Position numbers and translations under genes: made by a program. The notes below the pieces were generated by a model. The model searched no databases. It was not told the DNA's origin and saw nothing but the letters and a program-made list of their open reading frames with translations. Shown piece after piece: positions 2,050 through 48,605 of a stretch of 64,000 nt of DNA. Each line of letters opens with the position of its first letter. Position 1 is the stretch's first letter. Source of the DNA: Spirochaetaceae bacterium (GTDB taxonomy: Bacteria > Spirochaetota > Spirochaetia > DSM-2461); contig JAOPTT010000005.1 in assembly GCA_051531975.1 (NCBI GenBank), positions 391,030-455,029 on the forward strand, given 5' to 3'.

Positions 2050-2373
2050 TTAAAGCCTAGATACAATGTATTGATTAATTGAAACTCTTTCTTCCAGGGA
2101 TTTCAGTACTAAGGCTTTATGAAGTTCTGGAGGTACTCTTAATGTAAGATTTCCCTTGTATTTTCTAGCACTTAAAGGTTCTGGAATAGTCTCACCATCT
2201 TCTAACATCCATGAAATAGTTTCACTTACAACAATTTCTATCTCTTTTAATGCTTCTTGTGCTGTATTTCCATGGGTTAATAAAGATGGGAACTCTAGAC
2301 ATTTGGCTATATGGGTATTATCCTCCACTGACCATTCAATTCTATAAGTGTATTTTTCAACTAAATTATCCAT
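2050..2373 (-). CDS. hicB: HicB-family antitoxin with C-terminal RHH
   Basis: CLEFPSLLTHGNTAQEAL, GETIPEP, YKGNLTLRVPPELH...SINQYI. Confidence 0.92.
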   Translation of the reverse strand: MDNLVEKYTYRIEWSVEDNTHIAKCLEFPSLLTHGNTAQEALKEIEIVVSETISWMLEDGETIPEPLSARKYKGNLTLRVPPELHKALVLKSLEERVSINQYIVSRL

Positions 2374-33468: not shown

Positions 33469-34014
33469 ATGGATGTTAGAGATAAAAAATTAGTTGATGT
33501 AGTTTTAGAACTGTTCATGGATAATGGTGCTAAATTTAAGATGGAGGATGTGGCCTCCCAGATGGGGATAAGCAAAAAAACCATCTACAAGGAATATGGT
33601 AACAAAGAAGACTTAATTATCCTGGTTGTAAGTGCTATTTTTGAGGGCATAGAAAGTCAGCTACAAAAGATTCTTGAATCAAAAAAATATAACACTCTCC
33701 AGAAGCTTATTCATATAACCTGTACATTCCCAGATACAAAATTTGTCGATTACCATAAGGCTCTGATGCTGAAAGATGATTTCCCTAAACCCTATGCTAT
33801 GTTTATCAGCTATATCGAGGATAACTGGACCCTTTCGAAGCAGCTCTTTGATCAGTGCATCAAGGAAGGGCTGATAAAACCAATTGATCACGGACTATAC
33901 CGTACCATGATCCTGGGAATCACAAAGCAGGTTCTTGTAATGAAAGATATCGATCAGGAAGAGCTTCTTGGTAGATGTGTGCGCCAGTTATTTGAGGGGT
34001 TCATTGTTTCGTAG
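33469..34014 (+). CDS. TetR/AcrR-family regulator (start probably 33469)
   Basis: FKMEDVASQMGISKKTIYKEYGNKEDL. Confidence 0.9.
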   Translation: MDVRDKKLVDVVLELFMDNGAKFKMEDVASQMGISKKTIYKEYGNKEDLIILVVSAIFEGIESQLQKILESKKYNTLQKLIHITCTFPDTKFVDYHKALMLKDDFPKPYAMFISYIEDNWTLSKQLFDQCIKEGLIKPIDHGLYRTMILGITKQVLVMKDIDQEELLGRCVRQLFEGFIVS

Positions 34015-34083
34015 ACTGAGATTTAACATAAACTTAGTCACATTCATTAAAAAACCTATAAACACAATTAAGGAGAAACTTTT

Positions 34084-35604
34084 ATGAATAAAAAGAATAC
34101 AAACCTGATGAGAATTATTGCCTATGTAGTGATTCTACTACCGATTATTATGTTCCTATTGCTTGTAATTGGAAACCAATGGCTCTGGCCGGATATGAAT
34201 AAAATTGTAGGCGAAGCAGTAGGTATTCAGGTGAACTGGATTCTGATAATCCTAGCTCTGATCTCTTTGGGTGGAATATATCTGCTGACTCTTTTATATA
34301 AAGTTATAGATTTTAACAGGAAAGGAATTATTAGACCTGTAAGGATTATACGTTTGATAATTCCAGTTCTCACAGCCCTGACATCAGTGGCTCTTTCCAT
34401 GGTAATATTCGACGAGGCTGGGTCTTTGCTTTTCAGCAAACCTGTTAAGGATTACACTCTACCTCCCGTATTGCAATTGGCAGATGGAACGACCGTGGAG
34501 GATATCGCTGTTTGGGATGAAATCCGTAGAGATGAGATTATCAGTCTCTTTAATGAATATGTATATGGTCCCGTTCCTGGGAAACCAGAGAATATGAGGT
34601 TTGAAATACTTGATATCAAGCAAGATGCACTTGATGGAAAAGCTATTCGAAAGAATATTCGGGTATATTTCACTCCCGCTGAGACTGGGCCTTACATGGA
34701 TCTCCTCATTTATCTACCAAAAAATACAACAGGACCAACCCCACTTTTCCTTGGGATGAATTTCTATGGTAATCACACCACAACACTAGAAACAGATATT
34801 CCTCTTTCAAAAGTCTGGGTACGTAACAAATCAAAGTACGGAATCAGACAAAACCTAGCAACGGAAGAAAGCAGGTCTGTCCGTGCAAACCGCTGGCCGG
34901 TATCAACTCTCATTGGGAAGGGATATGGCTTAGCAACTGTTTATTATGGAGATCTAGACCCTGATTTTGATGACGGATTTACTAATGGTATACACCCTCT
35001 TTTTGATGTGGAAACAGGGGCTATCAGCGCCTGGGCCTGGGGCCTTAGTAGAGCCATGGATTATTTCATGACCGACAGTGATATCGATGGGGAAATGGTA
35101 GCCCTTATGGGACATTCTCGACTTGGAAAAGCAGCTCTCTGGGCTGGTGCAAACGATCCACGTTTTGCCATGGTTATCGCAAATGAATCAGGCAGTATTG
35201 GGGCGGCTATCTCCAGGAGAAAGTATGGAGAGGACGTAGAGTATATAACTTCTACCTTCCCCCATTGGTTTATTCCCAGACTTCGGGATTTTGCTAACCG
35301 GGAAGAAGATTTGCCAGTAGACCAACACATGCTGCTCTCCCTAATTGCCCCTCGTCCACTTTATGTGGCCAGTGCGGCGAATGACAGATGGTCCGATCCA
35401 GAAGGGGAGTTCCTAGGACTGCTTAATACCCGAGAGGTTTATGAACTTTACGGTCTGAAACCTACCACCACGGATGAAATACCTGGAATAGAAAAACCAG
35501 TGGTGAATATAACAGGTTACCACATCAGGGAAGGCATCCATGATGTTACAGATTATGACTGGGAACAGTTTCTAAACTTTGCAGATATATACCTTAGTAG
35601 ATAA
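34084..35604 (+). CDS. CE15 glucuronoyl-esterase-like hydrolase with three N-terminal TM helices
   Basis: GAISAWAWGLSRAMDY, GHSRLGKAALW, LPVDQHMLLSLIAPRP, DRWSDPEGE, GIHDVT. Confidence 0.85.
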   Translation: MNKKNTNLMRIIAYVVILLPIIMFLLLVIGNQWLWPDMNKIVGEAVGIQVNWILIILALISLGGIYLLTLLYKVIDFNRKGIIRPVRIIRLIIPVLTALTSVALSMVIFDEAGSLLFSKPVKDYTLPPVLQLADGTTVEDIAVWDEIRRDEIISLFNEYVYGPVPGKPENMRFEILDIKQDALDGKAIRKNIRVYFTPAETGPYMDLLIYLPKNTTGPTPLFLGMNFYGNHTTTLETDIPLSKVWVRNKSKYGIRQNLATEESRSVRANRWPVSTLIGKGYGLATVYYGDLDPDFDDGFTNGIHPLFDVETGAISAWAWGLSRAMDYFMTDSDIDGEMVALMGHSRLGKAALWAGANDPRFAMVIANESGSIGAAISRRKYGEDVEYITSTFPHWFIPRLRDFANREEDLPVDQHMLLSLIAPRPLYVASAANDRWSDPEGEFLGLLNTREVYELYGLKPTTTDEIPGIEKPVVNITGYHIREGIHDVTDYDWEQFLNFADIYLSR

Positions 35605-35626
35605 CCCAGTATTAATAAGTGTGATA

Positions 35627-35986
35627 TTACTCTGATATATTATTCAAAAACTGGGCAGTTATATTAACACATCCTTCACAAGATAGAACCTTTTTCTTAA
35701 GAATTTCTTTGCAGTTTAAAGATCCTGCTTCTTCTTTGAAAGTTTCTTGGAAACTTCCTAATACCTCAGGACGTGCTTTTTCAAGAAGATATTCGGCTGC
35801 ATAATAGGCTCCACATACTTTTCCTGGAGCTCTGCCATGACCATATTTTTTGAATTGTTTCAGATCTTTGTCACTCATTGGGGATATGTCATGATGAAAT
35901 ATATGTGAAATAGCTTCTGCACAGTTTAAACGCTTTTTTTTAGCTGAACCTACAAAAAGTTCTATGGAGTTTTTTATTTTTTTCAT
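35627..35986 (-). CDS. C-GCAxxG-C-C family putative redox protein (start reassigned to 35986)
   Basis: NCAEAI, VCGAYYA, GSLNCKEI, CEGCV; SD AAGGA. Confidence 0.75.
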   Translation of the reverse strand: MKKIKNSIELFVGSAKKKRLNCAEAISHIFHHDISPMSDKDLKQFKKYGHGRAPGKVCGAYYAAEYLLEKARPEVLGSFQETFKEEAGSLNCKEILKKKVLSCEGCVNITAQFLNNISE

Positions 35987-36071
35987 TATTGTCCTTAGAC
36001 GGTAGTATACAACAACATGTAGAAAACGCAACTGGAATTAGCATCATATCTGATGTATTGGAGTTATAAAA

Positions 36072-41155: not shown

Positions 41156-41701
41156 ATGAATGATTTAATTTATATAGGTGCTAGTAATAGTAAAAAATCG
41201 ATTAATAGAGAGTTTGCAAAATATACTGCAAATAAAATCACAGGTTTAAATACCACTGAACTCAATCTGAATGATTATGAGGTTGCAATATATAGTGTTG
41301 ATAGAGAAGAAGAGGGTGGAATCCCGGAAAAAATTAAAAACTTTATGCAAAAAATAGATGAGTCTAATGGATTGGTTATTTCATTGGCTGAACATAATGG
41401 AAATTATACTGTTGCATTTAAAAATATATTAGACTGGGCATCAAGAGCTGATAGGAATGTATGGAAAAATAAACCAATTTTTTTACTATCAACATCACCT
41501 GGTTCAAGTGGTGGGGGAAATGTATTAAATTTAGCAAAAGCAAGTTTCCCACATATGAATGGGATAGTAGAAGCTACTTTTAAGCTACCTTCATTTTATG
41601 ATAATTTTTCAAATGAAATAGGAATTAAAGATAATCTACTAGAAAAAATATTCCAGAAAGAGTTTGATAAATTCAGGAGTGTATTAGAGGCTCAGTTATG
41701 A
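41156..41701 (+). CDS. NADPH-dependent FMN reductase
   Basis: GASNSKKSIN, AEHNGNYTVAFKNILDW, STSPG. Confidence 0.9.
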   Translation: MNDLIYIGASNSKKSINREFAKYTANKITGLNTTELNLNDYEVAIYSVDREEEGGIPEKIKNFMQKIDESNGLVISLAEHNGNYTVAFKNILDWASRADRNVWKNKPIFLLSTSPGSSGGGNVLNLAKASFPHMNGIVEATFKLPSFYDNFSNEIGIKDNLLEKIFQKEFDKFRSVLEAQL

Positions 41702-43095
41702 ATAAAAAGAGCAGAGTATTTAAACCACTAATCTTAATGACAGTACCGGCAATTGTTGGAATGTTAATAACATTTATATTTCAACTTGCAGATACATATT
41801 TTATAGGGAAATTAGGAGTAGATAAGCTTGCTGCAATGAGTTTTTCATACCCGATTTACATATTATTTATTGGACTTTTTATGGGTATGTCCTCGGGAGT
41901 TGCATCAACAGTTGCAAAAGCACTTGGGGAAAAGAAAATATTAAAAGCAAAATACTTAACAGGAATATCAGTAATAATTTTTTTAATTATAGGTCTAGTT
42001 TTAGGTATTATTTGTCTTTATACAATAGATCCTCTTTTCAGAACTTTAGGAGCAAAGGGTGATACTCTAATATATCTAAAAGAATACATGGGAATACTAT
42101 TTCCTGGGTTCTTTCTTTTAGTTGGAACTCTTATAGGAAATTCAGCTTTAATGGCTAAAGGAATTATGATAAGAACAACAATTATTATGGGTATAGGTGG
42201 AGTAATCAACATTATCCTTGATTATTTACTAATATTTGGTATTGGTGATATAACTGCAATGGGTATTAAAGGAGCTGCATTTGCAACTGTTTTTTCATGG
42301 TTGGTAACATTTGTATTGATGACCATTCTACTTGTAAGAGAACAGATGATTAGCTTAAGAGTATTTTCATCACTATCTAGGGTCAAAAGTAGAGTTATTG
42401 AGATATTCAGGATTGGTTTACCAGCAGTAGCAGCTCAGATATTAAATCCTATAGCAATATCTGTATTAACCAGAGTCATAGCTTTATCAGGAGAGGGTGC
42501 AATAGCATCATATGGGATAGTTACAAAAATAGAGAGCTTAGGTTTAACTGTAATTTTGGCTTTAAGCGTAATATTAACACCATTTATTGGAAGACTATAC
42601 GGGGCAAAGGAAAATGAACATATTGAAAGAGTGATAGCATACTCAGGAAGAATTTCAGTTTATTGGAGTACTCTTTTGTTCATAACTTTAATCTTGTGGG
42701 GGAAAAATATAGTAAGTGGATTTACATCTGATGTTAGTGTAATTGAAACAAGTAGGTTATATTTCTATATCATTGGAATTTCATTACCAGCATTTGGTTT
42801 AACACATATAACAACATCACTATTTAATGGAGTTCAAAGACCAGATTTATCCCTAAGACTAACACTGGTAAAGTCTCTATTATTAACAATTCCATTAGGA
42901 ATAGCAGGGTCATTCTTAGGTGTATATGGAGTCTTTGCTGGGATATCACTTGGAAATATAATTGGAGTACTTTATGCTAGAAAGTTATTAACTACGTGGT
43001 ATATTAAAAACAGTTCAAATCTTCTTAATCATAATCCTGCTAAGGACTACATAGAGGATTTTAGAAGATTATTTAATTACATAAGGAGGAAGTAA
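41698..43095 (+). CDS. MATE-family efflux transporter
   Basis: LADTYFIGKLG, NIILDYLLIFG, MGIKGAAFAT. Confidence 0.93.
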   Translation: MNKKSRVFKPLILMTVPAIVGMLITFIFQLADTYFIGKLGVDKLAAMSFSYPIYILFIGLFMGMSSGVASTVAKALGEKKILKAKYLTGISVIIFLIIGLVLGIICLYTIDPLFRTLGAKGDTLIYLKEYMGILFPGFFLLVGTLIGNSALMAKGIMIRTTIIMGIGGVINIILDYLLIFGIGDITAMGIKGAAFATVFSWLVTFVLMTILLVREQMISLRVFSSLSRVKSRVIEIFRIGLPAVAAQILNPIAISVLTRVIALSGEGAIASYGIVTKIESLGLTVILALSVILTPFIGRLYGAKENEHIERVIAYSGRISVYWSTLLFITLILWGKNIVSGFTSDVSVIETSRLYFYIIGISLPAFGLTHITTSLFNGVQRPDLSLRLTLVKSLLLTIPLGIAGSFLGVYGVFAGISLGNIIGVLYARKLLTTWYIKNSSNLLNHNPAKDYIEDFRRLFNYIRRK

Positions 43096-43514
43096 TGAAT
43101 ACAACATATTATGAAACAATTCATCAGATAATTAGAACCGGTCATTGGATTACTGACAGTTTAAATAAGCTCTTAAAAGATAAAGGTTCAACTGAGCCCC
43201 AGTATAATGTCCTCAGAATACTCCATACTTCCAAAGAGGATATTATTACTCTGGATTATATTAAAGAGGGCATGGTTCAACCAAGTAGTAATGTTACCAG
43301 AATAGTAGAGAAGCTACTAATTAAAGGTTACGTTACAAGAGAAGAGTGTCCAACAAATAGAAGAAAAAAGGACATAAAACTAACAACACAGGGAGTAATA
43401 TATCTTAAAACTCTAGATGAAGTTGTTGAGTCGTTCCACAGTCCTATGTTTGATAAATTAAACTCTAATGAACTAAATAACCTAAAAGATTTAATTAAAA
43501 AATATAATAATTAA
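43095..43514 (+). CDS. MarR-family regulator
   Basis: TEPQYNVLRIL, SNVTRIVEKL, NRRKKDIKLT. Confidence 0.92.
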   Translation: MNTTYYETIHQIIRTGHWITDSLNKLLKDKGSTEPQYNVLRILHTSKEDIITLDYIKEGMVQPSSNVTRIVEKLLIKGYVTREECPTNRRKKDIKLTTQGVIYLKTLDEVVESFHSPMFDKLNSNELNNLKDLIKKYNN

Positions 43515-43572
43515 ATCTTTCAGGGAACATTTTATGAAGTTGCGTTTATATGAAATTAATATCTCATATAAA

Positions 43573-44856
43573 CTAATTTGTAGGTCGTAGAATCTTACAA
43601 CCTACCCATTTCTGCAAAACTTCTGGAACTATAACTGAACCATCCTCTTGTTGGAACTGCTCTATAATAGCTGGTAAAAGTCTACTAGTTGCAAGCCCTG
43701 AACCATTTAGAGTATTAACAAATTCACTCTTTTTACTTCCTTCTCTTTTGAATCTAATATTACCTCGCCGTGCCTGATAATCAGTTCCATTTGAAACAGA
43801 AGATATCTCTTTGTAAATATTCATACTCGGTATCCATACTTCTAAATCCAGAGTTTTTGCCATTGACGCAGAACAATCCTTTGCCGCTAATTTACTTACT
43901 ATATAGTGCAGACCTAAACCCTGAACAAGTTTTTCTGCTTTATCTAGTAACTCTTGTAGGCCAGCATTAGAATCTTCAGGTTTTGTAAAATGAAACATTT
44001 CTACCTTATTAAACTGATGCCCTCTAATCATACCTCTCTCTTCACTTCTATAACTACCTGCTTCCTGTCTGTAACAGGGAGAGTAGGCAAAAAGCTTTTT
44101 AGGAAGATCAGAATCTTTAAGAGTTTCATCTCTATAATAATTAACTAGTGCAGTTTCAGAGGTTGGTAATAAAAACTGTGTAGACTCTTTATCCCCATCA
44201 TTTAATCTATAAACATCATCTGCAAACTTAGGAAATTGTCCTGCAACATAACCACATTCATTATTAAGAATATGTGGAGGCAATATAAACTCATAATCAT
44301 CCATCAGATGAGAATCTATGCAGTAGTTTATTAACGCCCACTCAAGTCTTGCTCCAATACCTTTATATAGCCAAAACCCATTACCACCCATTTTTACACC
44401 TCTTTTATAGTCAATAAGACCAAGAGATTCCACCAGTTCCATATGTCCTCTAAATTTATACTCAAATATAGGCTTCTCTCCCCACTTTTTAATAACCTGG
44501 TTGTTTTCTTTATCTCCAGCAACTACATCATCTAATGGGATATTAGGTAGCTCTATAAGTATGTCATATATGAGGTTTTCAATTTTTTTAAGTTGTTTTT
44601 CAGAGTCTTTTATATTTAAAGAGAGGGATTTCATTTCATCCAATAAGTGTTTAACATTACTGCCGTTTTTTTTAAGTACTGGGATTTCCCCTGATACTAT
44701 GTTTCTACGATTCTTCATTTCATCAACTTTAGTATCCAGATCTCTAAAATCTGTGTCTAAAGTTAATAACTCTGTAAAATCCAAATCATCTACCCTTTTA
44801 AGCAGAGCTTCTTTTACAGCTTCTGGATTCATTCTAATTTTCTTTAAATCTAACAT
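43573..44856 (-). CDS. serS: Seryl-tRNA synthetase (start reassigned to ATG 44856)
   Basis: MLDLKKIR start with SD AAGGAG; GQFPKF, LLPTSET, CYRQEAGS, HQFNKVE, EISSVSN, LNGSGLA. Confidence 0.97.
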   Translation of the reverse strand: MLDLKKIRMNPEAVKEALLKRVDDLDFTELLTLDTDFRDLDTKVDEMKNRRNIVSGEIPVLKKNGSNVKHLLDEMKSLSLNIKDSEKQLKKIENLIYDILIELPNIPLDDVVAGDKENNQVIKKWGEKPIFEYKFRGHMELVESLGLIDYKRGVKMGGNGFWLYKGIGARLEWALINYCIDSHLMDDYEFILPPHILNNECGYVAGQFPKFADDVYRLNDGDKESTQFLLPTSETALVNYYRDETLKDSDLPKKLFAYSPCYRQEAGSYRSEERGMIRGHQFNKVEMFHFTKPEDSNAGLQELLDKAEKLVQGLGLHYIVSKLAAKDCSASMAKTLDLEVWIPSMNIYKEISSVSNGTDYQARRGNIRFKREGSKKSEFVNTLNGSGLATSRLLPAIIEQFQQEDGSVIVPEVLQKWVGCKILRPTN

Positions 44857-44880
44857 AAAATCTCCTTTAAAATTTTGAGC

Positions 44881-44911
44881 AAAAAAAAGCCCCATCGTTT
44901 TCGATGGGGCT
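44881..44911 (-). terminator. Intrinsic terminator in the serS leader (attenuator)
   Basis: GCCCCATCG-AAAA-CGATGGGGC followed by T8, ending 24 nt before the serS ATG. Confidence 0.9.
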
Positions 44912-44934
44912 GTAATTAACAAATATGGTTTGAT

Positions 44935-45033
44935 CTATTTTTTAATAAATACCGATTCTACCATTACCCCAGAAATAAATTCAGATGATGAGGAGGAGAT
45001 GGATAAATTGTTCAAAAAGATATTTAAGATCAT
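44935..45033 (-). CDS. Serine-rich leader peptide of serS (32 aa)
   Basis: Manual translation MILNIFLNNLSISSSSSEFISGVMVESVFIKK*; between promoter and terminator. Confidence 0.8.
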   Translation of the reverse strand: MILNIFLNNLSISSSSSEFISGVMVESVFIKK

Positions 45034-45039
45034 AAATTT

Positions 45040-45068
45040 AATATATAAAATATTATTATATCTGTCAA
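45040..45068 (-). promoter_or_regulatory. sigma70 promoter of the serS leader
   Basis: TTGACA-17-TATATT, then 6 nt to the leader ATG. Confidence 0.8.
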
Positions 45069-45084
45069 TTAGTAATTAAGGACT

Positions 45085-46452
45085 TCACTTTATTAGGTTT
45101 CTAATCCACTTTTTACTTCTCATTCTCTTCATAGCCACAAATATTTTAAAAACCTCTTCGGTTATTATAAATATAAAAACCCAAGCTAAAGATAGTTTCC
45201 ATACAAATGCAGCTAAAAATCCAAGAGGGATTCCTAAAAACCACTGGCAACTTACATCTAATTTCATTACAAACTTAGTATCTCCACCACTTCGTAATAT
45301 TCCTACAATTATTATGATATTAACAGCCATAAATAACATTTTTACTAATAAAATAGTAAAAATAATACCAGTCATAACAATAGTTTCAGCGGGCATAGCT
45401 GTAAAAAATCCAAGATAAATAGGTTTACAAATTAACATTAAAATAAATATAGAAATGCTTAATAAAAATCCCATAAATAGTAATACTTTAGCCTCTTGCC
45501 AAACTTTTTCATACTTTTCTTCACCTAAAGAGTGGCCTAAGATAATACTTGTTCCAGTAGCCAAACCACGGTAAAAGGCGATCATAATAGATGAAACAGG
45601 TTCTATCATGGTCATAATTGCTAGCTCGTTACTTCCTATTCGACCGTAAATAATATAATAAACATATGTTCCACTAGCCCATGCTAATGCAGCAAAAGAG
45701 AGAGGAAGAGAGAGACTTAATAATTTTTTAATACCCTGGGGAGTCATCTGCTGTTTAAACTTAGTAATAGAAAGTCTAAAAGCGGAATTAAAAAACAGTG
45801 TTATAATTACAATTAATGTCGCTTCTAAAAGGCAACTAAATAGTGTTCCATAAGCAGCACCTTTTAAACCCATGGCTTTAAAACCAAAATGTCCAAAAAT
45901 TAGCGTATAATTTAAAAAAACATTACTAATTACTCCAATAAAGCTAACTAGAGTACATTTTTTTACTTGTCCAGTACTGCTTAGACCAATATTAAAAGAT
46001 AGGATTATAGATTGTAACATTAAGTTATTTGAAATTATTTTAAGATATTCCGAACCGTATCTAATTACCTCTGGGTCATTAGAAGATATGGCAATAATTT
46101 GGTTCGCAAATATTTTAATTAGTACTGATAAAATTATGGATATAGATAGGGATATCATTGCTGATAATAGAACATTCCGGGCAACACCATCTGCATCTTT
46201 TTTACCCCAGAACTGGGATATTAATATTCCTGAACCATTTGTTAATCCTAATAACATAATGAATAAAACAAAAAATGGTTTACCTGCTGCACCAACAGCA
46301 GCAATCTGGGTAACTCCTAGAGCTCCGATCATTATTGTATCTATAAGGTTCCTGGAAGAACTTAGTAGGTTTTGTAGAGTTACTGGTATTGCTATAGAAA
46401 AGATTCTATTAAAAAAATCTCTATTTGCCGTTTGTCTTAGTTTAGCGATCAT
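45085..46452 (-). CDS. MATE-family efflux transporter (start reassigned to ATG 46452)
   Basis: LIDTIMIGALG, NVFLNYTLIFG, GILRSGGDTK; the track start is the -35 box itself. Confidence 0.93.
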   Translation of the reverse strand: MIAKLRQTANRDFFNRIFSIAIPVTLQNLLSSSRNLIDTIMIGALGVTQIAAVGAAGKPFFVLFIMLLGLTNGSGILISQFWGKKDADGVARNVLLSAMISLSISIILSVLIKIFANQIIAISSNDPEVIRYGSEYLKIISNNLMLQSIILSFNIGLSSTGQVKKCTLVSFIGVISNVFLNYTLIFGHFGFKAMGLKGAAYGTLFSCLLEATLIVIITLFFNSAFRLSITKFKQQMTPQGIKKLLSLSLPLSFAALAWASGTYVYYIIYGRIGSNELAIMTMIEPVSSIMIAFYRGLATGTSIILGHSLGEEKYEKVWQEAKVLLFMGFLLSISIFILMLICKPIYLGFFTAMPAETIVMTGIIFTILLVKMLFMAVNIIIIVGILRSGGDTKFVMKLDVSCQWFLGIPLGFLAAFVWKLSLAWVFIFIITEEVFKIFVAMKRMRSKKWIRNLIK

Positions 46453-46460
46453 AGATGAAG

Positions 46461-46491
46461 AATATAACAGTAAGAGTGTGCTCCAAGTCAA
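46461..46491 (-). promoter_or_regulatory. MerR-type promoter (19-bp spacer)
   Basis: TTGACT-TGGAGCACACTCTTACTGT-TATATT; GAG..CTC dyad in spacer. Confidence 0.6.
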
Positions 46492-46535
46492 TATAGATAT
46501 AGGTTTTTATTTAAATATTTAGTTAGATGTCATCA

Positions 46536-46564
46536 TTGACCAGCTAATATAAAGAAGGTAAAAT
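46536..46564 (+). promoter_or_regulatory. sigma70 promoter of yhfG-fic
   Basis: TTGACC-17-TAAAAT, 6 nt before ATG 46571. Confidence 0.7.
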
Positions 46565-46570
46565 TACTAT

Positions 46571-46729
46571 ATGAATATTAAATCTTTTGAAGAAAAAGTT
46601 GAATTCGTAAGAAAAAGTAGACTGGGGAATTATAAAGAAAGTTTAAGGCTTGAAGGTATGAATTCTTCTCTAAAACTCCATGGAAAGACTAGAGCTGAAA
46701 TCATCTCATTCTACACAAATAAAAAATGA
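46571..46729 (+). CDS. yhfG: YhfG/FicA-type antitoxin (52 aa, below ORF-track cutoff)
   Basis: MNIKSFEEKVEFVRKSRLGNYKESLRLEGMNSS...; (S/T)xxxE(G/N) inhibitory motif SLRLEG; ATGA overlap with fic. Confidence 0.85.
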   Translation: MNIKSFEEKVEFVRKSRLGNYKESLRLEGMNSSLKLHGKTRAEIISFYTNKK

Positions 46730-47319
46730 TATCTAATAAATATGGCACCGATGAAGATCCATATTGTTACAAGAATACAGATGTTCTAATAAATAAGCTT
46801 GATATTAAATCTAATAAAATTCTAGAGAAAATTGAAGAAGAAATTACGATATTAGCTGCTGACGAAATTGAATTTTTAGCCCCACCATATAACTTAGAAT
46901 ATTGGATAAATATTCATAAATCACTTTTTGAAGATCTATATTCTTGGGCTGGGGAGTTTAGATCACTAAATATAACAAAGGGTTCAACAGTATTTTGTAA
47001 TCCACTTTATATTGATAATGAACTTATTAGGATATTTAATAATTTAGAATGTAATAACTATTTTATGAGTTTATCATATACCGAACTCATTCCACAATTA
47101 GCAGAATTATATATTGAACTAAATGTTATACATCCATTTAGAGAAGGTAATGGACGTTCCCAGCGTATACTGTTTGATCATATAATTATAAATTGCGGAT
47201 ATAAGATGGATTGGTCACAGATTTCTAAAAATATATGGTTAGAAGCAAATATTAGTGGTGTAGAACTTAATTACAAACCAATGATTGAAATAGTAAAAAA
47301 AAGTCTAACTGAGTTTTAA
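46726..47319 (+). CDS. fic: Fic-domain adenylyltransferase (class I, FicT-like)
   Basis: DPYCY..TDVLINKL, HPFREGNGRSQR. Confidence 0.93.
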   Translation: MISNKYGTDEDPYCYKNTDVLINKLDIKSNKILEKIEEEITILAADEIEFLAPPYNLEYWINIHKSLFEDLYSWAGEFRSLNITKGSTVFCNPLYIDNELIRIFNNLECNNYFMSLSYTELIPQLAELYIELNVIHPFREGNGRSQRILFDHIIINCGYKMDWSQISKNIWLEANISGVELNYKPMIEIVKKSLTEF

Positions 47320-47381
47320 AGTCTTACCTAGAGCAAATAGTTCTTCTGATAATGTATCTACCTTAAGTCTTATACCTTTTT

Positions 47382-48605
47382 TTAATCTTTTTTCTGTAAT
47401 CTCTTAACTAAATAGTAGAGAGGAATCACTGGCAATAATAAAAGTCCACAAATTAACATTGCAAACGGAATAGAGATGAACTTTGCAATACTTCCTGTTA
47501 TTGGTCCACCTATAATCTGACCAATAGAGTCAAATTGACTACTAACTGAAAATAGGGTAGCTCTTGTTTTTGAATCCTTTATGTTATGGTTAAACCATGC
47601 ATTAAATAAAGGATAATTTACATTCTTTAAGATACCAATAATCCAGTAAAAGATTAAAGCTCCCCATAACCAATTTATATATCCAAAACTTATTAAAGAG
47701 AAAATTAGACATATAACTACTACGATTAATATTTTAGAAGTTTTAGTTTGATTAAACTTATCAACTTTCTTATTAATAAAACCAAGAATAATAAAACTTA
47801 TTAGCTGTGTAATTGCCCGGATAATACCAAAAAAGATTATGGGGTTTCCTGTTCCAAAGTCTGGGATAATAAAGCTTCCTAAAATATGAGGTGTCCATAA
47901 ACGATCATAACCTTCACTATATAATCCAAAGAAAAATCCAACTAACAGAAGAACTAATAGTATTGGTGCTGCTTTTATCTGTTTTAAAGAGCCTTTTAAT
48001 GATTTATACATTAAATTAAACGAATTCCTATCAGAAAAATCTACTGGTTTAAAATCTGTCTCTTTCATTATTATAGGAAGAATTAGACCCATTATAATAA
48101 AAAGTACTCCACCAGCTATTATTGGTATTTGAATATTACCAATACCTAGATAAACACTTAAGGGAATAGCAATGAAACCACCAAGATTTGCTGCTCTAGC
48201 ACCTTTAATAAATACATTTTGAACCTTTTCTTCCCCAACTTCATCTGCGATCCATGCTTCTGAAGCACCACTTATACAAGTAAAACCTAACCCCCATAAT
48301 ATTTTGCTTATAGCAATAAAAATGAAGTAGGGGAATAAACCCTCAATTAAAAATGCCACACCTGTAATTAAAATACCAATAATAATAGAAAACTTTCTAC
48401 TTTTTAAGTCCGCAATTATCCCTGTAGGTATTTCAAAGATAAATACACTGGATTCCAAAATTGTACCTATAAAAACAAGTTGCAATGGTGATAATTTAAC
48501 AACATTTACATGATAAATTAAATTTACAGTAAATATTAATGAAAATATAAATGAATTAAGAAATGAGAATGATATGTAAAGTTTTGAACTATCTATTTTA
48601 TTCAT
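47382..48605 (-). CDS. MFS efflux pump, TetA(P)/Tet(40)-like
   Basis: LSPLQLVFIGTILE, FEIPTGIIAD..SRK, SGASEAWIADE, SEGYDRL, GQIIGGP. Confidence 0.8.
   Translation of the reverse strand: MNKIDSSKLYISFSFLNSFIFSLIFTVNLIYHVNVVKLSPLQLVFIGTILESSVFIFEIPTGIIADLKSRKFSIIIGILITGVAFLIEGLFPYFIFIAISKILWGLGFTCISGASEAWIADEVGEEKVQNVFIKGARAANLGGFIAIPLSVYLGIGNIQIPIIAGGVLFIIMGLILPIIMKETDFKPVDFSDRNSFNLMYKSLKGSLKQIKAAPILLVLLLVGFFFGLYSEGYDRLWTPHILGSFIIPDFGTGNPIIFFGIIRAITQLISFIILGFINKKVDKFNQTKTSKILIVVVICLIFSLISFGYINWLWGALIFYWIIGILKNVNYPLFNAWFNHNIKDSKTRATLFSVSSQFDSIGQIIGGPITGSIAKFISIPFAMLICGLLLLPVIPLYYLVKRLQKKD

Follow-up and report, generated by a model that had tools for sequence, protein, structure and literature searches.

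T-boxes are regarded as the standard solution for the control of serS, the gene for seryl-tRNA synthetase, and in Bacillus subtilis they also control thrS/thrZ and tyrS/tyrZ, two synthetase gene pairs with an auxiliary member. At pheST of Escherichia coli, the phenylalanyl-tRNA synthetase genes are governed by a leader-peptide attenuator built on Phe codons; to our knowledge, leader-peptide attenuation of synthetase genes has been shown experimentally essentially only for pheST. According to the accessible part of Naville and Gautheret 2010 (PMC2965389), His-codon leader peptides are predicted before the hisS paralogs hisS* and hisZ in Bacillus; the available portion of bioRxiv 10.1101/834739 describes polycysteine leaderless regulatory short open reading frames (ORFs) of mycobacteria; and PMC4833913, in the sections available, uses spacing to count leader genes and mentions no attenuator of a synthetase. 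Here we analyze a 64,000-nucleotide (nt) stretch from the genome of a marine spirochaete (Spirochaetaceae; assembly GCA_051531975.1, contig JAOPTT010000005.1; hereafter the window), on whose minus strand a second seryl-tRNA synthetase gene, which we call serS2, is preceded by a short ORF with a run of Ser codons and by an intrinsic terminator. We propose, with a probability of about 0.7, that this leader is a ribosome-mediated Ser-codon transcription attenuator, which senses the charging of tRNA-Ser and thereby sets the expression of the auxiliary serS2. An earlier note on this DNA had offered the same interpretation, which the sequence analyses below support, and knew of no characterized Ser-codon attenuator for serS. 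Our literature search likewise found no description of a Ser-codon leader for serS, or of leader-peptide control of synthetase genes in spirochaetes (subscription journals lying outside its coverage), and a search of titles and abstracts for leader-peptide attenuation of thrS or tyrS returned nothing relevant.

One line of evidence is the order of the elements themselves (Table 1). The promoter, the 32-codon ORF, the terminator and the Shine–Dalgarno sequence (SD) with the serS2 ATG are all present where the earlier note had placed them, and its count of Ser codons is confirmed: Ser occupies codon 11 and codons 13–17, i.e., six of the seven codons 11–17, and eight codons of the ORF in total. 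The leader promoter, TTGACA-17-TATATT, matches at 11 of 12 positions and ranks first among 17 promoter-like sites in 43300-46800; it is the sole strong promoter of the serS2 region, and its -10 box lies 6 nt 5' of the leader ATG (45033). The terminator has a 10-bp stem with seven G-C pairs and an AAAA loop, followed by a T run, and the promoter scan found no promoter-like site in the approximately 20 nt between this T run and the serS2 ATG. Because the terminator is thus inside the transcript with no promoter-like site after it, every serS2 transcript must pass the hairpin, and some conditional read-through is therefore required. The upstream MATE efflux gene (45085-46491) lacks a terminator of its own before the leader promoter; hence, any read-through from it also meets the leader terminator.

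Table 1. Coordinates of the serS2 leader, its neighbors and the related leaders of the same genome (window positions, or contig and locus for leaders outside the window)
Feature	Position	Strand	Description
Leader promoter	TTGACA 45068-45063, 17-nt spacer, TATATT 45045-45040	minus	sigma-70-type promoter of the leader transcript
Leader ORF of serS2	45033-44935	minus	32 codons, ATG at 45033, stop TAG 44937-44935; peptide MILNIFLNNLSISSSSSEFISGVMVESVFIKK; one of five complete leaders
Regulatory codons 11-17	45003-44983	minus	TCC ATC TCC TCC TCA TCA TCT
Segment 1, CCATCTCCTCC	45002-44992	minus	partner of segment 2 in the free RNA (minimum-energy folds)
Segment 2, TTTCTGGGGTAATGGT	44975-44960	minus	anti-antiterminator with segment 1, or 5' strand of the antiterminator
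Segment 3, ACCAT ... AGCCCCATCG(AAA)	44929-44899	minus	3' strand of the antiterminator, including the 5' arm of the terminator
Intrinsic terminator, AGCCCCATCG-AAAA-CGATGGGGCT	hairpin 44911-44888, to 44881 with T run	minus	
Shine–Dalgarno sequence of serS2, AAAGGAGA	44868-44861	minus	GGAG at 44865-44862; serS2 ATG at 44856
serS2	43573-44856	minus	seryl-tRNA synthetase gene (Pfam and NCBIfam TIGR00414)
MATE efflux gene 5' of the leader	45085-46491	minus	Pfam; stop at 45085
Leader before 403-aa tyrS	C10:75242-77011 (L095)		MNISVANTNYYYYYNSLFFVRYKLQKL (YYYYY)
Leader before 648-aa thrS	C14:174610-177190 (L097)		MIINVKSTTTTTQTTTD (TTTTTQTTT)
Leader before leuA	C14:127383-129113 (L098)		MNKLELLQLNLLALLLGKLSMCVVFSKIYS (Leu-rich)
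Leader before 646-aa MetRS-like gene	C3:150224-152705 (L096)		MNNLSRQEQQQQTQQQQLYYGAA (Gln run)

The predicted folds of this leader, in both the free and the ribosome-masked RNA, follow the classic model, and the 1:2 / 2:3 / 3:4 layout that the earlier note had recognized is thereby borne out. Numbering the RNA from 45033, the free transcript up to the terminator loop (1-136; -16.3 kcal/mol) pairs CCAU..CC.CC (32-42) with GG.GG..AUGG (64-73), which are segments 1 and 2, and leaves the terminator arm with 2 of its 10 bases paired upstream. We then represented the ribosome as a 28-nt footprint whose A site was set at codon 11, 15 or 17. With the Ser codons masked in this manner, the best folds (-14.4 to -15.3 kcal/mol) pair UUUCUGGGGU.AAUGGU (59-74) with ACCAU (105-109), GCCCCA (124-129) and G132-A135, so that 8, 8 and 7 of the 10 bases of the terminator 5' arm are predicted to be taken up by the antiterminator for the A site at codons 11, 15 and 17, respectively. 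The claim that a single segment can pair in either direction also holds up: TGGGGTAATGGT (44971-44960) pairs with CCATCTCC... in the minimum-energy fold and with ACCAT...GCCCCA once the Ser codons are masked. When the ribosome is placed at the leader stop codon of the full transcript, the predicted structure is the 1:2 pairing together with the terminator. The fold of 45033-44856 as a whole has z = -3.0.

The choice of codons in the leader is likewise biased. All eight Ser codons of the leader ORF are TCN, though AGY accounts for 32% of Ser usage, and three of the six in the run are TCC as against 7.9% of the Ser codons in long ORFs. The tRNA-Ser genes of the host genome carry the anticodons GGA, TGA and GCT. 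This TCN/TCC bias could stem from sensitivity to a single isoacceptor or from what segment 1 requires for its pairing, or from the two together.

The leader ORF is probably translated from a leaderless 5' end, judging from the position of its start codon. As the earlier note had observed, it looks leaderless, its ATG following the -10 box by 6 nt, and this proves to be the modal spacing of SD-less genes in the genome; the arrangement thus fits a normal initiation mode of the host. About half of the gene starts in the host genome (1709/3433) use an SD, compared with a background of 9%. Before the 1302 SD-less first-ATG starts, TAnAAT is found at 6 nt in 5.7% and at 7 nt in 2.7% of cases, against a background of approximately 0.4-0.9% at 20-44 nt from such ATGs, whereas SD-bearing starts show no -10 peak near the ATG. 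More generally, among these SD-less starts the ends of -10 hexamers are strongly concentrated 5-8 nt before the ATG relative to other distances, and leaderless mRNAs seem to be common in this organism. The housekeeping serS offers a further instance: in the region 5' of it (C2:232032-232731, L099), and in those of two congeners (L091 and L092), there is no SD and a TATAAT-like hexamer lies 4-6 nt before the ATG, and its mRNA too is probably leaderless to judge from this spacing.

Independent support comes from the rest of the host genome (G000), which we surveyed by two family-agnostic scans. The first sought strong terminators at most 70 nt before an SD-led ORF of at least 120 codons and returned 62 genes; the second sought intergenic ORFs of 8-60 codons with at least five identical residues in seven and a long ORF within 300 nt. 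The latter gave 92 ORFs, whose runs are of L (48), I (29), K (5), masked X (3), S (2), Y (2), Q (1), V (1) and T (1); the ORF before serS2 is one of the two with Ser runs and alone reaches six of seven. Across both scans, only five leaders have all three of an ATG start, a promoter next to it and a terminator, namely those of serS2, tyrS, thrS, leuA and a MetRS-like gene (gene identities from NCBIfam and Pfam). When the L, I, K and masked ORFs are set aside, three of the seven remaining run ORFs precede the cognate synthetase, a placement that, with about one or two cognate genes among several thousand, is by our own estimate vanishingly unlikely to arise by chance. The other run ORFs (the second Ser, Val, the second Tyr, Ile and Leu) were treated as chance: nearly all have TTG or GTG starts, none has an ATG beside a -10 box, and their spacers showed no terminator on inspection by eye. 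Promoters of the TTGACA/TTGACT/TGTACA type precede the four sister leaders, spaced from the ATG as in the serS2 leader. In all five leaders of G000 and in four orthologous leaders, a -10 box lies 16-17 nt from a TTGACA-like -35 box, and the ATG comes 6-8 nt after this -10 box.

Two of these sister leaders are conserved beyond the host genome. Three genomes of one genus, G000, G001 and G003, have the thrS type that carries a TGS domain, and G002 (81% complete) gave no match to it; in the alignment, all three genomes with this type have the TTTQTTT run, the same terminator and the promoter-adjacent ATG, whereas a Thr-run leader precedes the other thrS type in none of 27 relatives. The leader-bearing tyrS is an extra copy (a second TyrRS-like gene lies on C8), and its type is found in 2 of 40 relatives, namely G005 and G010, which belong to another genus and whose copies are 57-58% identical. 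In all three genomes with this type, the tyrS leader keeps the Tyr run and a C-terminal LQKL before the stop. Further, its antiterminator strand, terminator 5' arm and 3' arm change in concert, being CTAC/GTAG/CTAC in G000 and CTGC/GCAG/CTGC in G005 and G010. This three-way covariation fits two alternative pairings of one arm and is suggestive, three sequences being no statistical sample. The predicted folds of the sisters vary. The leuA leader and the G005 tyrS leader show the same toggle as that of serS2; the arm of the G000 tyrS leader is nearly unpaired when masked (0-4 of 11 bases), and that of the G010 tyrS leader is part-paired already in the free RNA. For the thrS and MetRS-like leaders, the antiterminator is the default fold; with the ribosome on the stop codon, it is largely or wholly lost in the two clearest cases, which are G003 thrS and the MetRS-like gene.

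The spacer between the thrS terminator and the thrS ATG on C14 also holds copies of a unit of approximately 40 nt that ends in ...CTGCTCGCCTATGCAACCAAGG (L097, ~2050-2165, minus strand). This unit has 10 occurrences, often in tandem, including five other places on C3, C5, C14 and C18; at four of the places the last copy merges into an AAGGAG or AAGGGG that is closely followed, within a few bases, by an ATG. It is absent before thrS in G001 and G003 and belongs to no Rfam family; an Rfam search of the thrS leader with the repeat region gave a single 21-bit PinT match.

A T-box, which would be the expected regulator of serS, is not found here. A scan that the earlier note had suggested detected none at the leader (E<=10) or in the host genome. 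In particular, no Rfam family reaches its gathering threshold in the whole window, and at E<=10 over 44700-45300 there is no T-box and there are sub-threshold matches only, nearly all of which overlap the terminator hairpin. Among the leader families, Phe_leader (RF01859) scores 24.9 bits on the leader against a gathering threshold of 55 (E = 0.074), with a match (44882-44939) that ends with the terminator hairpin. The T-box model RF00230 has no match in the host genome and is positive in 5 of 14 control genomes, and a scan of the host genome with the T-box core motif gave no full match. Rfam returned no matches at the second serS locus or at a third weak locus.

The gene behind the leader is clearly a seryl-tRNA synthetase (418 bits against NCBIfam TIGR00414, cut-off 302) and one of two in the host genome, which is 5.46 Mb in size with 31.5% G+C and has three above-cut-off matches to FlaA, the flagellar sheath family (none in 14 control genomes). 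The other copy (C2:232731-233999) also passes the serS model and is 33% identical to serS2. This other type is present in 19 of 20 relatives, whereas the serS2 type was detected in none of 40 relatives (at E<=1e-100) and in none of 37 members of the host's own family. In the class as a whole, 23 of 400 genomes have it (46-63% identity by BLAST), all outside the host family. Its closest relatives (56-67% identity) are mostly from Clostridia, and a metagenome scan brought up no relative above 67%. In a FastTree phylogeny of 76 rows (the window protein, every second one of the genome loci, 80 in number, and all 23 class loci, rooted on an outgroup of 12 housekeeping-type sequences), SerRS2 groups with Clostridium and Bacillota sequences (support 86, not starred). 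Finally, the orthologous MATE gene in congeners G001 and G002 has other genes next to it rather than serS. Given that the 33% type stands alone in relatives, and given the clostridial nearest sequences, the tree and the MATE neighbors in the congeners, serS2 is read as a second copy of a foreign, Clostridia-like type that was acquired. T-boxes do occur among its kin: when 20 of the nearest serS2-type loci were scanned, two, L004 (67% identity) and L022 (64%), had one above the Rfam threshold, and a cruder motif flagged 15 of 80 genome loci and 10 of 75 metagenome loci.

Briefly, we envisage the following mechanism, in which the start site, the translation of the leader, the coupling of transcription to translation and the response to serine are inferred. 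Transcription would begin at the leader ATG, give or take a base or two, as suggested by the -10 spacing, and a ribosome would engage the leaderless 5' end, following the polymerase immediately. With Ser-tRNA plentiful, the ribosome would pass codons 11-17 and cross segment 2 on its way to the stop codon; being either covered or re-paired with segment 1, segment 2 would leave the terminator (44911-44888) free to form, and a leader RNA of approximately 150 nt would be released. With Ser-tRNA scarce, either from serine starvation or because the housekeeping SerRS is inhibited or in short supply, the ribosome would stall on the TCC/TCA/TCT run and cover segment 1; segment 2 could then pair with ACCAT...GCCCCA, including the terminator 5' arm, and the polymerase would read into serS2.

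Several observations weigh against this proposal and hold its probability down. One is the lack of conservation. We looked for comparable leaders before other serS genes, screening for short upstream ORFs with at least four Ser in seven codons. There is no comparable leader in the 80 genome loci of the serS2 type (three of which have under 230 nt upstream; five high-GC loci have Ser-run ORFs, none with a terminator) and none in the 23 loci from the same class (two high-GC chance ORFs). The metagenome contributed 75 usable loci of 80, the other five being dropped because less than 150 nt lay between the locus edge and the beginning of the match, or because the match started beyond the first five residues; these yielded a single instance that is weak and unrelated (a 57-codon ORF, 362 nt upstream). 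Such runs are also missing before the housekeeping-type serS in all 11 loci, five of which have short ORFs with three Ser in seven, none in combination with a promoter-adjacent ATG and a terminator. Thus, the Ser run that the earlier note had proposed to look for upstream of serS orthologs has no comparable counterpart among 178 usable serS2-type loci. This carries little weight, as serS2 is a lone xenolog whose relatives, the closest ortholog being 67% identical, belong to other phyla or families. By this sequence comparison, the survey shows the leader to be local to this genome; its absence elsewhere is not evidence of non-function. BLAST of the leader DNA against the host genome found only chance words of up to 19 nt by way of a second copy, and the leader, as a singleton, provides no covariation evidence for its pairings.

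The folding results also have a reverse side. When leaders were shuffled with dinucleotides preserved, 31 of 1000 toggled in like manner (at most two arm bases paired when free and at least seven when masked); at 3.1% of shuffles, the toggle is only moderately unusual. At equilibrium, the terminator wins in every case among the predicted folds, and the switch must therefore be kinetic, like those of the classic attenuators. A ribosome halted at the last Ser codon would, in the model, contact the start of segment 2. As for the sister leaders, 14 other loci matching PF00587, PF00579, PF00133 or PF00152 have no such leader (the Arg, Cys, Glu/Gln, Ala and Phe families not being searched by name). 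Moreover, the Gln run precedes a divergent MetRS-like paralog (235 bits against NCBIfam metG, cut-off 587; the housekeeping metG is elsewhere) and is thus non-cognate, and it is absent from all four orthologous loci; therefore, a run beside a synthetase gene is not always cognate or conserved.

These points feed into the alternative explanations. The one that survives best, though we hold it unlikely, is that the Ser-rich ORF is a chance frame, that the terminator serves the MATE gene from a distance or acts as a constitutive damper, and that serS2 is expressed by unregulated leak-through or is controlled at the hairpin by an unknown protein or small RNA. The hairpin does also end MATE transcripts, there being no earlier terminator for that gene; no ortholog has the Ser leader; the toggle recurs among shuffled sequences at the rate given above; and from base composition we ourselves estimate that a handful of 6-of-7 Ser windows is to be expected genome-wide. 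However, chance would have to bring together five things: a promoter close to consensus, an ATG spaced as in leaderless genes, a cognate run at one of two serS genes, a terminator and a ribosome-dependent fold. The same combination with cognate runs recurs before tyrS, thrS and leuA, with conservation for tyrS and thrS, and the MATE orthologs in G001 have a terminator-like hairpin of their own approximately 50 nt past the stop.

An attenuator specific for serine also has to be set against a general sensor of translational stress, in which any slowing of the ribosome, by antibiotics or global starvation, opens the terminator, as in erm/cat-type leaders. We give this somewhat less credence still. 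The MATE, MarR and MFS genes flanking serS2 would suit such a role, as would the Gln-run leader before its non-cognate MetRS-like gene; but at serS2, tyrS, thrS and leuA the run matches the regulated gene, and the stall site that yields the antiterminator fold is the Ser run itself. It is more improbable again that the promoter, ORF and terminator, which do make a complete unit, constitute an independent small gene for a 32-residue hydrophobic, Ser-rich peptide or a small RNA of approximately 150 nt, with read-through into serS2 being incidental. The precedent would be Sinorhizobium trpL, for which the available text of PMC6614838 and PMC7298713 describes trans-acting attenuator RNAs and leader peptides. 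Yet serS2 has no other promoter, the peptide belongs to no Pfam family, the genome contains no further copy of the leader DNA, and a role in trans would leave one in cis possible. Lastly, a degenerate T-box or other known riboswitch inherited with the clostridial-type gene, as the above-threshold T-boxes of L004 and L022, the two nearest-scoring relatives scanned, might suggest, is hardly credible with no T-box at E<=10 in 44700-45300, none in the genome, and a leader that from start to terminator end (approximately 150 nt) is shorter than the 219-position model.

Returning to the locus itself, the leader overlaps a plus-strand 49-codon ORF (44930-45079), which we rejected as a gene: it has no Pfam family, and the sole promoter-like site on that strand (9/12, 45024-45051) is internal to it. 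Its acidic run DDEEEM mirrors the Ser codons, and it is probably not a gene. The neighborhood of serS2 (41698-48605) is made up of genes for export and regulation, with MATE (41698-43095) and MarR (43095-43514) on one side, and on the far side MATE (45085-46491), Fic/DOC (46726-47319) and MFS (47382-48605). This cluster may hint at a role in resistance to a SerRS inhibitor. Elsewhere in the window, 34001-36000 has a G+C of 0.40 compared with approximately 0.30 in the rest.

Taken together, the Ser-codon attenuator and its sisters may point to a wider evolutionary scenario, which we put forward tentatively, as somewhat below even odds. The host would belong to a T-box-free spirochaete lineage rich in leaderless mRNAs, which deploys a few leaderless leader-peptide attenuators on foreign or auxiliary synthetase genes (serS2, the second tyrS, thrS and the MetRS-like gene). 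serS2 would have come from a T-box-bearing clostridial lineage; after the transfer, a Ser-codon attenuator that arose anew would have taken the place of its T-box, sensing the same signal by way of the ribosome, with the switch of mechanism being forced by the transcription–translation regime of the host. SerRS2, once induced, could act as a back-up enzyme, or as an inhibitor-insensitive one when the housekeeping SerRS fails. If the attenuator reading is true, it would mean that: (i) serine can act as a regulatory amino acid in classic attenuation; (ii) the coupling of transcription and translation in spirochaetes is tight enough for attenuation, and this from leaderless 5' ends; (iii) a horizontally acquired gene can give up its T-box in favor of a leader peptide responsive to the same physiological signal. 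The serS2 leader also offers a compact, testable sensor of Ser-tRNA.

Placed beside the known systems, the proposed serS2 attenuator is closest in logic to pheST, with which it shares a short leader ORF, a run of codons cognate to the synthetase, a terminator with an alternative antiterminator and autoregulation via charged tRNA; it differs in having Ser and serS in place of Phe and pheST, a spirochaete host and a leaderless start instead of an SD, and there is no sequence relation. With the attenuators of the trp, his, thr and leu operons of Proteobacteria and Actinobacteria, it has in common the 1:2 / 2:3 / 3:4 layout and the stalling on regulatory codons, whereas it would control a synthetase rather than a biosynthetic operon, and it matches no Rfam leader family at threshold. 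The serS T-boxes of Bacillota act on the same gene family, and the proposed attenuator would share with them its signal (tRNA-Ser charging) and its output (antitermination); at serS2, in contrast, the sensor would be a translating ribosome rather than direct binding of tRNA, and the T-box model and core motif are absent.

Among the less canonical systems, the Bacillus hisS*/hisZ leaders, as far as the accessible part of PMC2965389 describes them, are similar in placing an attenuator on a paralogous synthetase copy while the other copy is regulated differently; they concern another amino acid and another phylum, and Bacillus also uses T-boxes, of which the serS2 host has none. The polycysteine short ORFs of mycobacteria (bioRxiv 10.1101/834739, in the portion available) resemble the serS2 leader in their leaderless 5' AUG, their run of one amino acid and their being regulatory short ORFs; the serS2 leader has other target genes, belongs to another phylum and is read out by a canonical intrinsic terminator. 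Finally, the thrS/thrZ and tyrS/tyrZ pairs present the same theme that we propose for serS2, a reserve second synthetase gene induced when charging of the cognate tRNA falls, with serS2 having a leader peptide where those pairs have a T-box.

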